Of a DNA stretch of 64,000 bases, positions 3,206 through 9,504 are shown in pieces; the stretch's first letter is position 1, and every line of letters begins with the position of its first letter. Both the position numbers and the translations under genes were made by a program. The DNA is from an uncultured Bacteroidales bacterium (GTDB lineage: Bacteria > Bacteroidota > Bacteroidia > Bacteroidales > JAADJA01), in contig CAVXGA010000012.1 of NCBI GenBank assembly GCA_963761195.1, positions 96,082 through 160,081 of the forward strand, written 5' to 3'. The notes under the pieces are model-generated. The model was not told where the DNA came from and did no database searches. It worked only from the letters and a program-made list of their open reading frames with translations.

Positions 3206-3424
3206 AAAGACCTGTAAATGAAAACGAACCGCCCGCAAGTTCAAGCGTTCCTGTAAAGGTCTCTGCGTAAAAATCACCCGGACCGTAATACTTACGATAT
3301 CCAAATCAGGCGAACGTATAATCTTGTTATGGGATTGTAAACAAGAAAGAGCAGGTTTTCACTTCGTAAAAAAAATTTTCTCCTTTTATCAATGATTCTC
3401 TTTACTGCGTTATAGTCGAAAGAA

Positions 3425-3500
3425 AGTACGGCGGTACTCGAAGCCGAGTATCGGCGTACTCGGAGTCAAGTATCACGGTACTCGGTGCCGAGTATGCTGC
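3425..3500. repeat. 3.5 tandem copies of a 22-bp unit (AGTAYCRSGGTACTCGGWGYCR) with nested inverted repeats CCGAGTA/TACTCGG
   Basis: AGTA recurs at 3425, 3447, 3469 and 3491, an exact 22-bp period. Palindromes seen are TACTCG-aagc-CGAGTA and CCGAGTA-tcggcg-TACTCGG. Confidence 0.8.
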
Positions 3501-3667: not shown

Positions 3668-3785
3668 GGTCATTCAGGCAAGGTCATTGAACCTTAAACC
3701 TTGAACTTTGAACCTTAACACCTTGAACCTTGAACTCTTGAACCTTAAACCTTTGAACCTTAAACTTTGAACCTTAAACTTCCAC
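3668..3785. repeat. Degenerate tandem array of TGAAC(C/T)T / TTGAACCTTAAAC units (about 9 copies)
   Basis: Read directly: ...ttgaaccttaaaccttgaactttgaaccttaacaccttgaaccttgaactcttgaaccttaaacctttgaaccttaaactttgaaccttaaac... It ends about 40 nt before the M48 start. Confidence 0.8.
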
Positions 3786-3795
3786 CTAATTTTGG

Positions 3796-3803
3796 TAATT
3801 TTG
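3796..3803 (+). promoter_or_regulatory. -7 promoter box TAatTTTG (a second copy lies at 3787-3794)
   Basis: Matches TAnnTTTG, 22 nt upstream of the ATG at 3825. Confidence 0.45.
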
Positions 3804-3824
3804 CAAACCATTAATAAAGTGTAT

Positions 3825-5067
3825 ATGGCTCAGATCATATTTTATATAATTATTGGGATTATTATTTTCGACTATATTCTGGAACGGATACTCGATTGGC
3901 TCAACAGTACGTATTGGAGCAATGAACTACCTCCCGAACTTGCCGGCATTTACGATGCGGAGAAATACAAAAAATCGCAGGATTACGAACGAGTGACCAC
4001 CCGTTTTTCGTTGCTTACAAGTTCATTAAGCATTATCGTTATGCTGCTCATGCTTTTCCTTAGCGGTTTTGCATGGCTCGATAATGTTGTACAGGCATTA
4101 TACGCAAAATCCCATCCTGATGGCACTGCTGTTTTTCGGGATACTGGGATTTGCTGCCGATATCCTGTCGACGCCATTTTCAGTTTACAGCACCTTTGTC
4201 ATCGAAGAAAAGTTCGGATTTAATAAAACAACTCCGAAAACCTTTGTTCTGGATAAGCTGAAAGGGTTATTTCTGGCGGCGATTATCGGTGGCGGACTGC
4301 TGGCTCTTGTCGTATGGATTTACATGATTTCAGGCTCATGGTTTTGGGTGATCGCCTGGGCTGTCATCAGCGTGTTTACTATTTTCATGACCATGTTCTA
4401 TTCAAACATCATTGTTCCTTTATTCAACAAGCAAACACCGCTTGAAGAAGGAAACCTGCGAACAGCCATCGAAGATTTTGCACATAAAGTCGGCTTTAAG
4501 CTTAAGAATATTTTTGTCATGGACGGTTCCAAACGCTCCACGAAGGCAAATGCCTATTTTACAGGTCTCGGCTCAAAGAAACGAATCGTACTTTTTGATA
4601 CACTGATCAAGGATCATACAACAGAAGAGCTTGTCGGAGTTTTGGCCCATGAAATTGGCCATTACAAGAAAAAGCATACGCTTACGGGAACCATTATTTC
4701 GCTTTTACAAACCGGACTGATGCTTTATATTTTATCGCTCTTTATTGGGAACCCGGTTTTATCGCAGGCGCTGGGTGCAAGCGAAGGCAGTTTTCACTTG
4801 GGTATTCTTGCATTCGGATTGCTGTACAGTCCCCTGTCGCTCATTCTCGGATTAATTATGAATATGATCTCCCGGAAAAATGAATTTGCTGCGGATCGTT
4901 ATGCAGGCGAAAATTATAAACCCAAACCCTTACAGGATGCATTAAAAAAGTTATCGGTTAATCATTTAAGCAATCTTCGCCCCCACCCTGCCTATGTATT
5001 CTTTTACTATTCGCATCCGCCGCTGCTGCAAAGACTGAAAGCACTGGAAAAGGTAACTCCAGCTTGA
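3825..5067 (+). pseudogene. M48 family (Ste24/HtpX-like) zinc metalloprotease, interrupted by a +1 frameshift near 4092
   Basis: HEIGHYKKKH (HExxH) sits in the 3' frame. The N-terminal frame (MAQIIFYIIIG...GFAWLDNVV) continues as RHYTQNPILMALLFFG only if one base (c at about 4092) is skipped. Confidence 0.8.
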
Positions 5068-5116: not shown

Positions 5117-5326
5117 ATGTTTCAGCAAAAATATATAACGGATGAAAAAGGCAGGAAGATAAGCGTTGTAGTTCCTTTTAAAGAATACAAAAAGCTTATC
5201 GAAGCCTATGACGAGCTCGAGGATATTAAAGCGTACGATTCAGCTAAATCCAAAAAATCTGATCCGGTAGATGCAGCCACAGCATTTGAGGAAATAGAAG
5301 AGTACCAAAAAAGATCAAAAAAGTGA
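5117..5326 (+). CDS. RelB/ParD-type antitoxin
   Basis: 69 aa with an acidic C-terminus. Its stop overlaps the ATG of the RelE-like remnant (ATGA overlap at 5324-5328). Confidence 0.6.
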   Translation: MFQQKYITDEKGRKISVVVPFKEYKKLIEAYDELEDIKAYDSAKSKKSDPVDAATAFEEIEEYQKRSKK

Positions 5327-7395: not shown

Positions 7396-7671
7396 TTAAA
7401 TACTTAGCATTATCTCTTTATTTTCCTTATCAGGTTCGTTTTCATATTGATTAAGCAAAAATGGACTCATTTCTAAAATTTTCCTAATTCTAACACTGTT
7501 TAATGGATTAGCTATTCCATATGAATTTTTTAAATCAAGAACGTATAATTCTCTTAAAGATGCTATTTCGGCACCCTTTATTGCTCCTCCAATGGCACCC
7601 ATGTTGTATCCTTGAGAAGATTTAATTGCTACTTCTCCATTGTTGATAGGCCCATAAAAAACTAAGTACAT
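7396..7671 (-). CDS. Hypothetical protein, possibly a 5'-truncated fragment
   Basis: The frame stays open about 40 codons upstream of the ATG without another start. No motif recognised. Confidence 0.3.
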   Translation of the reverse strand: MYLVFYGPINNGEVAIKSSQGYNMGAIGGAIKGAEIASLRELYVLDLKNSYGIANPLNSVRIRKILEMSPFLLNQYENEPDKENKEIMLSI

Positions 7672-7929
7672 TCCTTCAGAAATTATTTTTGAATACCAGG
7701 TTTGGGCTTGTTGAAGGTTACAATTTATAAATAATGAGTCTCCGGTTGAGATGGCATAAATCTGCTTTTTAATAAAATTATTTTTTATTGATTTAGAGAC
7801 TGTTTAAAATTCAATAAAAAATTTGACAGTATCAATTTTGCCACTAAATCACTAATACGCAAAGAAAACACAAAGAGTTATAACAGTCTCTAAGGTTTTA
7901 CCCTAAGGCTTAAATCATTATTATCTGTT

Positions 7930-7956
7930 GCCACGAGTTACAAACTCGGGGCAGCG
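7930..7956 (-). other. 27-nt conserved stem-loop, copy A (GCC-a-CGAGTT-aca-AACTCG-g-GGC-agcg), 15 nt 3' of the HTH gene stop
   Basis: 23 of 27 nt identical to copy B. One G:C to A:T compensatory pair lies in the stem. Confidence 0.6.
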
Positions 7957-7971
7957 GGTTTGGGATTTGGG

Positions 7972-8304
7972 TTAGGTTTGGGGGCGGGCTTTTAGGAGGG
8001 TATTGATTTCGTGGAGATAGGCTACTTCTTTTTGTAAGGCGACTACTTTGGCGGTTAATTCTTTGTTTTGAGCGGTTAAACTGGTGAGGGTGGCTGCGGA
8101 TGTTCCGGATTTTTCGATGAAATGGATGAAAAAGTTGTACTTGAGGTGGCGGGAGATGCGGTATAGCCTGCTTACGGGCATGTCGTTCTTCTTTAATGAA
8201 GCGTAGAGGGTTACGGGACTAATTTTAAGTTGTTTTGCAAGGTCGTAAACGGATGTGTGGTGCAGTCTGCAATGCTCTTTTATTTTATAACCAAAGTTTA
8301 CCAT
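7972..8304 (-). CDS. Small helix-turn-helix DNA-binding protein with a C-terminal coiled coil
   Basis: TSVYDLAKQLKISPVTLYASLKK is HTH-like. The C-terminal heptad-like stretch is LTAQNKELTAKVVALQKEVAYLHEINTLL. Confidence 0.6.
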   Translation of the reverse strand: MVNFGYKIKEHCRLHHTSVYDLAKQLKISPVTLYASLKKNDMPVSRLYRISRHLKYNFFIHFIEKSGTSAATLTSLTAQNKELTAKVVALQKEVAYLHEINTLLKARPQT

Positions 8305-8361
8305 GATGAATTTTTTATTTTAATGTGTTATGCGGGTTCAAAAATAGAAAAAATTTTGTGA

Positions 8362-8529
8362 TTGTTAACTATATTGATATAAATGTTCAACTAATTATTC
8401 AATATGTTAAATTAATTAATCTTTATGTAAAGTTATTTAATTAATATGTTAAGTTGATTAATTATTTTGTTAATCAGATTAGTAAATTTATAAAGTAAAT
8501 TGATATATTTGTTAAGTTGATTAATTAAT
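8362..8529. repeat. Eight tandem 21-bp iteron-like units (consensus about WTGTTAAGTTGATTAATTAAT)
   Basis: Unit starts at 8362, 8383, 8404, 8425, 8446, 8467, 8488 and 8509, an exact 21-bp phase. Units at 8446 and 8509 are nearly identical. Confidence 0.85.
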
Positions 8530-8836
8530 ATGATGGCCGGAAGATCATTTTAGCGTTAAAAACTTGCGGGGGCGTTGATTTTAAGGGGTTGGGGGACAAA
8601 TGCAAATTGGTGGGTGGGATAAATAAGGAACGAGAATAGAAGTTATACTATATAGGCATGATTGTTATCTTAAGGCACGAGTCGCGCTTACACACTGGCC
8701 TGGGTTGGAAGACTGGCGCCAGTTAGGGTACATCACAAAGCCATATTTGTGAAGAAATTTGGGGTTGGGAGGGGAGGAATTAGTAGGGTTGGTGGAGTAG
8801 GATTGGGTGGAGAAGGTCTGATGTTGCCATATTAAA

Positions 8837-8863
8837 GCCACAATTTACAAACTTGCGGCAGCG
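8837..8863 (-). other. 27-nt conserved stem-loop, copy B, 10 nt 3' of the HepT stop
   Basis: gccacaatttacaaacttgcggcagcg compared with copy A gccacgagttacaaactcggggcagcg. Confidence 0.6.
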
Positions 8864-8873
8864 TAGGGCAGCC

Positions 8874-9212
8874 TTATAAATTAAGTAATTCTTGAACTTC
8901 AGTTTTAAGTTTTGGTAGGTGATTAATCAGGATGCTCCAAATAAGATCATCTGAGATTTTATCATAACCATGTGCTATCCTGTTTCTTGTCCCAACAATT
9001 TTTTGCGCATTAACAAGTTCAAATTTCCTGTCCCTTTTAAGTATTCGGTTTGTAGCTTCTCCAATAATTTCGATATTGCGCTCAACAGCACGCTTAGTTT
9101 TTATGTCCTTAATATAGTTTTCAAATATCCTTGGTTTATCGGCAAAATAACTCTCAATCTCTTCAATGGATTGAATAATATCATACAACCATGTCTTTAT
9201 TTCATTATCCAT
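8874..9212 (-). CDS. hepT: HepT-like (DUF86) RNase toxin of a type VII MNT/HepT toxin-antitoxin pair
   Basis: Rx4HxY motif within TRNRIAHGYD. Overlaps the upstream MNT gene by 8 nt. Confidence 0.85.
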   Translation of the reverse strand: MDNEIKTWLYDIIQSIEEIESYFADKPRIFENYIKDIKTKRAVERNIEIIGEATNRILKRDRKFELVNAQKIVGTRNRIAHGYDKISDDLIWSILINHLPKLKTEVQELLNL

Positions 9213-9504
9213 AAATAAGTTGTTTGGATTGATCTATGGATTGCCGTAAATATGGATTTTTTATTGCTTTATCTTCCAACAAATCCACATCTCTATTGAA
9301 TAATCGTTCCAATGACTCTTTGAAATCGAAATAATTATCAGCATAATAATATAAGTCGACATCATTAAAATCTACTACAAAATCAATATCACTGGTTTTT
9401 CTGAATCTGCCAGTTAATACCGATCCAAAAGCAAATAGTTTACTCACCTTGTGTTTCTTACACAAATCATTAATAATTTCAATATTTCTATCAACAATAT
9501 CCAT
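9205..9504 (-). CDS. mntA: MNT nucleotidyltransferase antitoxin
   Basis: FGSVLTGRFRKTSDIDFVVDF, which is a GS...DxD minimal nucleotidyltransferase motif. Confidence 0.85.
   Translation of the reverse strand: MDIVDRNIEIINDLCKKHKVSKLFAFGSVLTGRFRKTSDIDFVVDFNDVDLYYYADNYFDFKESLERLFNRDVDLLEDKAIKNPYLRQSIDQSKQLIYG

Follow-up and report, generated by a model that had tools for sequence, protein, structure and literature searches.

The window, a stretch of 64,000 nucleotides from contig CAVXGA010000012.1 of an uncultured Bacteroidales bacterium, carries eight head-to-tail 21-bp repeats immediately upstream of a gene for a 110-amino-acid (aa) protein that combines an Xre-type helix-turn-helix (HTH) domain with a C-terminal leucine zipper. 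Arrays with the same geometry accompany related genes at nine other loci, and the repeat sequence changes together with the protein. It is concluded that the array is probably the cognate cis-acting site of the adjacent protein, and that array, promoter and gene would constitute a self-contained cassette in which a dimer of the protein coats the array and regulates its own synthesis. The elements concerned are as follows.

8362-8529, no strand assigned: repeat array of eight head-to-tail 21-bp units (periodicity, uniqueness in the window, same geometry at nine other family loci).
8305-8361, minus strand: predicted core promoter and 5' leader of the HTH gene (comparison with the motif TAnnTTTG).
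7972-8304, minus strand: HTH-zipper gene, encoding the 110-aa protein (Pfam, AlphaFold2 model, Foldseek, profile search of PDB sequences, family alignment).

The 21-bp array and the protein encoded beside it

Read on the plus strand from position 8362 in the 21-bp register, the units are in order TTGTTAACTATATTGATATAA, ATGTTCAACTAATTATTCAAT, ATGTTAAATTAATTAATCTTT and ATGTAAAGTTATTTAATTAAT, followed by the fifth to eighth, ATGTTAAGTTGATTAATTATT, TTGTTAATCAGATTAGTAAAT, TTATAAAGTAAATTGATATAT and TTGTTAAGTTGATTAATTAAT. Their consensus is tTGTTAAgTTaATTAATaAAT on this strand and ATTnATTAATnAAnTTAACAn on that of the gene. The 21-mers that flank the array on either side do not fit, and the unit count is therefore eight. 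Six columns are invariant and four more agree in 7/8 units, the mean pairwise identity between units being 0.67. Self-identity of the array reaches 0.673 at lag 21 and 0.667 at both lag 42 and lag 63, as against 0.384 +/- 0.037 at lag 21 in 5000 dinucleotide-preserving shuffles (z = 7.8), none of which attained 0.60 at lags 5 to 60. Tandem Repeats Finder independently reported a period of 21 at 8383-8473 and 8437-8532. An earlier note on this DNA had described eight phased 21-bp units, placed 58-225 bp upstream of the HTH protein's ATG at 8304; both the periodicity and the distance are borne out.

The array is unique in the window, since identity at lag 21 in 168-bp segments exceeds 0.5 across the 64 kb solely for starts between 8294 and 8418. 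The 18-mer TGTTAAGTTGATTAATTA, quoted in the earlier note as the core, occurs in two exact copies (8447 and 8510) and in one with 3 mismatches (8426); it has no copy elsewhere in the window. The array is also very poor in G+C (13.7%, or 86% A+T, vs 38% for the window). Dyad symmetry of the units does not exceed a column-permutation null in any family array (P = 0.05-0.98), and the units are therefore to be treated as direct repeats. A model of one symmetric dimer per palindromic unit was accordingly dropped, the short palindromes seen by eye in many units failing the same permutation test. Position weight matrices (PWMs) derived from the arrays found no site scoring at or above the median unit outside the arrays, either in the 64-kb window or in 6-10 kb at seven other loci; this small sample fits the suggestion that the array would be the main target of the adjacent protein. 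Within the window array the promoter-proximal units score lowest (9.9 and 12.5 bits, vs 22.3 bits for the distal unit).

In the protein, residues 4-66 (8107-8295) form a five-helix HTH domain of the Xre/Cro type. Pfam HTH_26 (Cro/C1-type) matches it narrowly, at 23.7 bits against a cut-off of 22, and is the best and most frequent Pfam match in the family (14/21 members); HTH_Tnp_1 is weakly matched by 5/21 and HTH_7, also weakly, by a few. An AlphaFold2 model built on a 17-sequence alignment (predicted local distance difference test score, pLDDT, 85) has helices at residues 4-14, 19-25, 30-39, 44-54 and 59-66, followed by one long helix at 70-105. Foldseek neighbours of the N-terminal domain are ClgR, SinR, the controller (C) proteins of restriction-modification (R-M) systems including C.BclI, ImmR, CapH and HipB, with TM-scores (normalised to target length) of 0.6-0.75 across 60-70 residues.

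The long C-terminal helix (residues 70-105; 7990-8097) has leucines at 76, 83, 90, 97 and 104, the five heptads of a leucine zipper. L83 is invariant in the family, L76 and L90 are nearly so, and Asn80 occupies an 'a' position within a conserved 'EN' motif. Leucine heptads with Asn at an 'a' position are the signature of a parallel dimeric zipper, and the window protein is predicted to dimerise in this way. The family profile, run against PDB sequences, matches mostly leucine zippers (GCN4, C/EBP, Jun) and also designed coiled coils; it detected no similarity to the P2 C repressor.

The family of the protein is a rare and unnamed one of Bacteroidota. Among 1.8 billion cluster representatives, all scanned with HMMER, there were 73 relatives, nearly all of 100-125 aa, and a word-indexed protein search returned the query as its sole match. 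Source annotations of the relatives read hypothetical protein or generic HTH only, and no account of the family or of the array-gene architecture was found in the literature. A PADLOC match to mad1 (E 2.6e-4) spans the generic HTH only, and membership in a defence system was not accepted. Three longer proteins were also noted. P0029 (249 aa) has two tandem HTH domains of the window-protein family followed by a zipper, a layout that fits tandem reading of direct repeats, and P0019 (409 aa) and P0023 (589 aa) have seven tandem HTH repeats each, ~48 aa per repeat, and are resolvase-like. All three are possible single-chain readers of tandem DNA repeats.

Arrays at related loci

Related loci were drawn from representative genomes, metagenomes and exact-sequence look-ups, with a six-sequence alignment in use because the 21-sequence one was too diverse. 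Among the 12 loci with a full-length protein of >=30% identity and sufficient upstream DNA, 10 have an array with a 21-bp period, the exceptions being L004 and L020. The ten arrays are listed here by position relative to the ATG, with a unit where one was compared.

Window: -225 to -58; ATTAATTAATCAACTTAACAA (gene strand)
L001: -226 to -51; ATTTCTTTTCCTAAATTCAAT
L002: -221 to -55; AAAAGTGTCCATCCGGTAT
L003: -307 to -48, 12.4 near-perfect copies; AAATTGCACAAATTCAACTTC
L017: -225 to -67; ATATCAATTAATTGCATTAAA
L018: -196 to -109
L019: -223 to -92 (contig end)
L037: -212 to -62; TATAGTAATTAATGCAATTTA
L039: -253 to -39; TAAATAAACTTCCAGTTTATA
L041: -222 to -66; TGAAAGCGACCATCCACTCAC

The distance from array to ATG is ~40-70 bp in most of the ten. 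With the 21-bp register set at -225 from the ATG, eight or nine units align in all of them except L003. Identity at lag 21 ranges from 0.55 to 0.92, slightly stronger 42- or 63-bp periods appear in some arrays, and the 10/11-bp periodic signal of A-tract phasing is absent in all ten. Array copies are identical in the three sample pairs compared, with no repeat-number polymorphism of the kind that would signal phase variation.

The spacing is thus shared by units that, among distant loci, are unrelated in sequence. Several arrays are not AT-rich and have G+C-containing units such as GTGTCCATCCGG and AAGCGACCATC, which argues for sequence-specific recognition rather than generic AT-rich curvature or purely structural DNA. 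Array similarity is highest, in nearly the same register, for the three closest protein pairs (L017/L037, r = 0.68; window/L017, 0.65; window/L037, 0.57). L017 and L037 have in common both the recognition-helix string TPTTLYRSLR and an AATTAAT-GCA core in the repeat; the window protein has the string SPVTLYASLK and a unit that differs from theirs. At the DNA level these two loci are 80% identical over -194 to +314 only, that is, over array and gene, and their flanks are unrelated. In the metagenome-assembled genome (MAG) JAWKKL01, three paralogues (L001, L002 and L003) each have a different array sequence.

The two exceptions carry less: L004 has two 22-bp repeats, and L020 a 42-bp period in 2.3 copies. 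In the distant members L043 and L044, one short inverted repeat, resembling the operator of an ordinary Xre protein, can be made out by eye at the corresponding position. Because more distant members carry fewer repeats, the eight-unit array seems to be an expanded operator characteristic of one subfamily.

Several further observations were made at these loci. At L039, a source-called open reading frame (ORF) of 216 aa (4262-4912, minus strand) lies antisense over the array and has no family match; it is probably spurious, an example of how a false gene call can hide an array. The upstream regions of the JAWKKL01 cassettes contain interspersed repeats, ~91% identical, of 68 nt (L001 3526-3592 and L002 3422-3488) and 87 nt (L002 3294-3379 and L003 3447-3533), which resemble elements of the miniature inverted-repeat transposable (MITE) or repetitive extragenic palindromic (REP) type. 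Upstream of the HTH genes of L005, L006, L008 and L015, HTH-only distant homologues from Prevotella and other Bacteroidales MAGs, a conserved element of ~150 nt at ~250-50 nt resembles a structured RNA and reads ..AAAACCGCCAATTTT..GTTCATGCCCC..GGCGTGGAYTGTTTGTGCTTATCTGTATC..CTTGGCGGT..; in L008 it has no Rfam match at E <= 0.1.

Promoter, spacer and genomic neighbourhoods

Between array and gene in the window, a -7 box of the Bacteroides type, TATTTTTG, lies at 8339-8346 on the minus strand, -42 to -35 from the ATG. It conforms to the Bacteroides -7 consensus TAnnTTTG (PMC4747536). An exact TAnnTTTG is present between array and ATG at 6/10 loci and a one-base variant at two more, chance being put at ~0.05 per locus by a back-of-envelope estimate. 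Bayley et al., in 2000, reportedly found a gap of 19-21 bp between the -33 and -7 elements. With such a gap, the expected -33 region falls within the promoter-proximal unit (8362-8382), and a protein coat on the array would therefore contact the region to which polymerase binds.

On the other side of the array lies a spacer of distinctive composition, and two copies of a short direct repeat bracket the whole.

8530-8873, minus strand: spacer from the HepT stop codon to the array (skew, shared motifs, folding, ORF and Rfam checks).
7930-7956, minus strand: 27-nt hairpin-forming element, 16 nt past the stop of the HTH gene; direct repeat of 8837-8863.
8837-8863, minus strand: second copy of the 27-nt element, 23/27 identical, just past the HepT stop.

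The spacer is C-rich and G-poor on the gene strand (GC skew -0.41) and is predicted to be unstructured, with a minimum free energy of -3 kcal/mol over 101 nt. It has no conserved ORF, only nucleotide-repeat artefacts, and Rfam gave no match in the cassette or in the upstream regions of related loci. It may act as a Rho-utilisation-like insulator of the cassette against read-through transcription. Two of its motifs are common to other family loci, CCCACCCA (8611-8618) and GCGACTCGTGCC (8674-8685). The latter belongs to a motif of ~45 nt (GGCGC.AGTC...GCGACTCGTGCC), followed in some copies by CCCACCCA and a small hairpin, which was seen upstream of the array in family loci of different lineages at variable distance from it (window 8674-8685, minus strand; L041 2814-2825; L002 ~3290-3340; L003 ~3440-3490); it is without an Rfam match or a significant fold. 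Folding of the spacer, of the shared-motif region and of the hairpins after the stop codon was no better than that of shuffles (z +0.6 to -1.8).

The gene strand is G-poor across spacer, array and gene, and likewise in most family loci. The extreme of GC skew in the 64 kb lies at 7851-8926, with an excess of G over C on the plus strand of up to 0.55 (~4.4 standard deviations); the skew within the gene itself may reflect amino-acid and codon composition. The two 27-nt copies, GCCACNANTTACAAACTNGNGGCAGCG, bracket this compositionally skewed cassette of ~930 bp, and a third, partial copy is at 8556-8575. Full copies can form a hairpin with a TTTGTAA loop on the gene strand, and the element may be terminator-like. 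The repeats were considered as element ends or target duplications and rejected as such, flanking repeats being present at no other family locus. Similar hairpins with a TTTGCAA loop occur upstream of the L002 and L003 arrays. The only quadruplex-type motif of the window, of the form (G3+N1-7)x4, is antisense at 7948-7971, right after the HTH stop codon, and telomere-like runs of GGGTTT/GGGATTT are found at 7957-7990, 8570-8625 and 8760-8815.

Flanking genes differ at every locus, those of the window being HepT/MNT and a DUF6563 fragment. At the other loci they are the following.

L037: MmeI-type R-M gene, DUF2971, Rnf genes.
L039: GatB/GatD, SIR2/RecX.
L041: tetratricopeptide-repeat (TPR) protein, succinyl-CoA ligase.
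L003: DNA methylases.
L017: Fib_succ_major protein, CoA transferases.
L001 and L002: other unrelated genes.

Housekeeping genes flank the cassette in the window and at eight other loci, and in 8/8 loci the neighbour on the upstream side is co-directional. No Rep, ParA/ParM/TubZ, integrase or transposase genes were found near the array in the window or at the eight other loci examined, and no Rep gene lies within ~8 kb of the window array. The sole P-loop protein near any examined array is a STAND/AAA-like ORF 2.5 kb away in L002, which is not conserved. Searches by tblastn with the window protein in 72,556 plasmids, 50,697 phages and viral contigs gave no homologue. DnaA boxes (TTATCCACA-like, with at most 1 mismatch) are absent between 4257 and 9204; the 64 kb contain 27 boxes with one mismatch vs 22 expected, the nearest to the array lying at 9205, inside a coding region. 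A downstream orfB or transposase ORF is present at no locus, and the cassette is not bracketed by inverted repeats. For one housekeeping gene of the window, similarity is greatest to uncultured Bacteroidales/Bacteroidota MAGs, and in an empty-site comparison synteny with a 91%-identical relative breaks at the aldolase gene.

Other features of the surroundings may be recorded. The HepT/MNT pair that adjoins the cassette upstream (8874-9504, minus strand) is a HEPN ribonuclease/nucleotidyltransferase toxin-antitoxin, whose MNT matches the PADLOC candidate defence family PDC-S09; defence-type upstream neighbours also occur at other family loci (R-M at L003 and L037, DUF2971/PDC-S31 at L037). A RelB-like antitoxin ORF, seemingly an orphan, is located 3 kb from the cassette (5117-5326, plus strand). 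Just downstream of the cassette, a 91-aa ORF (7396-7671, minus strand) aligns with the DUF6563 profile, 191 positions long, at positions 96-180 only. It is probably what is left of a truncated gene and suggests that the region is decaying or variable. Farther off, an M48/HtpX-like peptidase is split between two overlapping ORFs in different frames (3792-4223, with Peptidase_M48_N, and 4069-5067, with the catalytic part, both on the plus strand) and represents either a frameshifted gene or a sequencing error. Directly upstream of these ORFs are the other tandem arrays of the window, a 22-nt unit repeated 2.9 times and ~13 TTGAACC heptamers (also scored as 15-/22-nt units), at 3432-3495 and 3687-3779.

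Proposed function and comparison with known systems

In the favoured mechanism, array, promoter and gene (~0.55 kb, or ~0.9 kb with the C-rich upstream spacer) make up a compact cassette that is conserved as a whole within a rare subfamily of Xre-type regulators of Bacteroidota. The protein would dimerise through its C-terminal parallel leucine zipper and its HTH domains would read the 21-bp units, all of which would face the same side of the DNA because they are spaced two helical turns apart. Occupation of eight units, whether by 8 dimers or by 4 dimers each spanning two units, would produce a continuous nucleoprotein coat of ~170 bp, the promoter-proximal end of which would cover the -33 region of the gene's own promoter. 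Transcription would then respond steeply to the protein's own concentration, as a consequence of the coat over this region, and the simplest outcome would be cooperative autorepression.

The earlier note had described cooperative binding of small proteins to arrays of this kind and had offered, for this one, either strong autoregulation or a relic or active partition/replication module. Cooperative binding and autoregulation gain from the fixed geometry in 10/12 loci, from repeats that change with the protein and from the predicted Bacteroides-type promoter that abuts the array. The module finds no support: there are no Rep, Par, integrase or transposase genes near the arrays of the nine loci examined, no DnaA boxes at the window array and no plasmid, phage or viral-contig homologue, and the protein has neither the form of a Rep initiator nor a known centromere-binding fold. 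The term iteron, also used in that note, is acceptable for the DNA but not for membership of the iteron family.

Several points weigh against autoregulation through a coated array. Eight operators far exceed the usual need of autoregulation, and a purpose beyond feedback may exist. The lack of dyad symmetry means that a simple model of a symmetric dimer on a palindrome does not apply. Over the full set of 45 locus pairs, array similarity follows HTH identity only weakly (Spearman 0.22, P = 0.15), the closest pairs alone being informative; the Foldseek E-values are modest (0.03-0.3); and the scan for other targets, including any regulated in trans, covers 64 kb of the source genome only. Either sign of regulation, activation included, would also be compatible with the sequence.

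Activation is nonetheless rather unlikely, even when positive autoregulation, with the array as a platform on which bound protein recruits or stabilises RNA polymerase at a weak promoter, is taken jointly with a bistable variant in which eight cooperative sites would create an all-or-none, heritable ON/OFF state. The array does lie wholly upstream of the -7 box, at ~-35 to -200 from the likely start site, which is the classical position of an activator; many sites imply steep cooperativity, and the promoter-proximal units of the window are the weakest consensus matches (9.9 and 12.5 vs 22.3 bits). Nevertheless, the proximal unit overlaps the expected -33 element, an arrangement more typical of occlusion, and the structural neighbours include repressors (SinR, ImmR, HipB), though C proteins and ClgR can also activate. 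A purpose other than the regulation of another gene was given a little more weight, while still being thought improbable: the cassette may represent a class of autonomous protein/DNA-array elements in Bacteroidota, not previously recognised, for which the ~170-bp complex would itself be the purpose. It might serve as a site of chromosomal pairing or anchoring, as an insulator, or as a selfish pair of gene and site, spreading horizontally and diversifying in specificity so that paralogues avoid cross-talk; on this view the fixed unit number, the C-rich spacer, the strand bias and the constant orientation to the upstream gene would count among the design features of the element. Unlikely, by comparison, is a centromere-like, pairing or architectural site in the style of ParR-parC, TubR-tubC or omega-parS, served by a host motor or by DNA pairing or anchoring, with promoter control as a side effect. 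ParM, ParA and TubZ genes adjoin none of nine loci, the Xre HTH fold is not the ribbon-helix-helix (RHH) or winged helix of known small centromere-binding proteins, the cassettes sit on chromosomal contigs amid housekeeping genes, with three unlinked copies in one MAG, and plasmids and phages offer no homologues. Such a role would nonetheless agree with type II, III and Ib centromeres, which are direct repeats upstream of the binding protein's promoter, bound by a dimer per repeat, wrapped and repressing (PMC5016525), with the constant unit number (~8, 168 bp), which hints at a defined higher-order complex, and with the absence of other target sites in the PWM scan.

The remaining explanations carry still lower probability. 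A small mobile or exchanged selfish unit, whose array serves propagation, for example as an end used in recombination or transposition or as a site of the addiction type, is quite unlikely. Its spread would account for the rare and patchy distribution (73 clusters among 1.8 billion representatives), for three paralogues in unrelated contexts in one MAG, for an 80%-identical array and gene within unrelated flanks and for the skew of the cassette as an outlier of the window; the neighbourhoods are often variable or of defence type (HepT/MNT, R-M, DUF2971), the upstream neighbour is co-directional in 8/8 loci, and the HTH-zipper layout recalls IS3 OrfA, HTH_Tnp_1 being weakly matched in 5/21. Yet transposase, integrase and recombinase are missing, terminal inverted repeats or target duplications were not found, the 27-nt flanking repeat is confined to the window, the L017/L037 homology fades without a sharp edge, copies are identical across samples, and the fold is closer to Xre regulators than to transposase HTH domains. 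That the array is a functionless minisatellite, or purely structural (bent, UP-like) DNA beside the gene by chance, is very improbable in view of the same period, copy number and position in ten loci with unrelated, partly G+C-containing units, and of stable copies without A-tract phasing at 10-11 bp; the 86% A+T of the window array and the recent near-perfect expansion to 12.4 copies in L003, evidence that slippage or duplication occurs, are what speak for it. Hardest of all to credit is a replication origin of the iteron type, whether still active or left behind by an integrated plasmid or integrative and conjugative element (ICE). Phased, very AT-rich direct repeats of ~21 bp beside the gene of a DNA-binding protein recall one. 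Against it, AT-richness is not shared by several family arrays, the 110-aa protein has an Xre HTH and a zipper and is no Rep initiator, DnaA boxes are lacking in the array and on either side of it, without enrichment in the window as a whole, mobilisation, integrase and partition genes are found at no locus, and there are no plasmid homologues. The lack of partner genes, plasmid homologues and DnaA boxes therefore removes the origin reading and leaves a classical partition module very unlikely.

Should the protein indeed coat its array, the family would offer naturally diversified, orthogonal protein/operator pairs, with at least 10 21-bp specificities on one small scaffold and three of them coexisting in one genome. 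The family would also make a compact model for the co-evolution of HTH specificity and repeat arrays and for the reading of direct repeats by symmetric dimers, and might furnish regulatory parts, insulated and steep in their response, for Bacteroidota, a group with few genetic tools. A complex with a non-regulatory role, be it pairing, anchoring or selfish spread, would instead represent a chromosomal element of a new kind. The finding in any case draws attention to a protein family without a name and to an intergenic architecture that recurs and that annotation pipelines miss.

The cassette may be compared with several known systems. OrfA proteins of the IS3 family combine an HTH and a leucine zipper in ~100 aa. 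The window protein resembles them in size and two-part architecture, and a few family members weakly match HTH_Tnp_1 or HTH_7; it differs in that there is no downstream orfB/transposase, frameshift site or terminal inverted repeats, and in that HTH_26 is the best match. The iteron/Rep origins of R6K, RK2, P1 and pSC101 have repeats of 17-22 bp, phased at about two helical turns, beside the Rep gene. The eight 21-bp units agree with them in length and phasing and likewise adjoin the gene for the presumed binder, whereas a Rep initiator has ~250-350 aa with winged-helix domains and the protein here has 110 aa, without DnaA boxes or a plasmid context. SinR, ClgR, C proteins, ImmR and CapH share with it the five-helix HTH fold, the small size and a C-terminal helical region, which in the window protein is predicted to dimerise; they typically autoregulate from operators at their own promoter, as is proposed here. 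They differ from the cassette in having one to few operators, often palindromic, instead of an eight-unit array, and in controlling adjacent effector genes, of which none is conserved here.

In the plasmid partition systems ParR-parC (type II), TubR-tubC (type III) and omega-parS (type Ib), coated repeats form a higher-order structure and repress the promoter (PMC5016525). The head-to-tail repeats directly upstream of a promoter are alike, the array here ending 58 bp before the ATG. The binding proteins are not, being RHH (ParR, omega, ParG) or winged helix (TubR) in those systems and all-helical here, with a five-helix Xre domain and a long helix; and the ParM, TubZ or ParA motor gene and plasmid location of those systems were found neither in nine neighbourhoods nor in the plasmid search. 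The C repressor of phage P2 is an Xre-like dimer. Its sites are non-palindromic direct repeats with their centres 22 bp apart, each occupied by one dimer, and its relatives of other immunity classes recognise repeats of other sequence (PMC2995052). The cassette shares the small HTH protein and the direct repeats two helical turns apart at its own regulatory region, dimer and binding here being predicted. It differs in having eight units, or twelve in L003, in place of two half-sites, in a C-terminal zipper in place of dimerisation through the globular domain, and in standing alone on chromosomes, with no phage homologues, in place of a phage switch with Cox and integrase. Set beside these systems, the architecture resembles arrays of the operator or centromere type in its presumed working, while lacking the defining traits of iteron origins and of par systems. 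It is classified as a regulator of the Xre type whose operator, expanded into an array of phased direct repeats, goes together with the gene.

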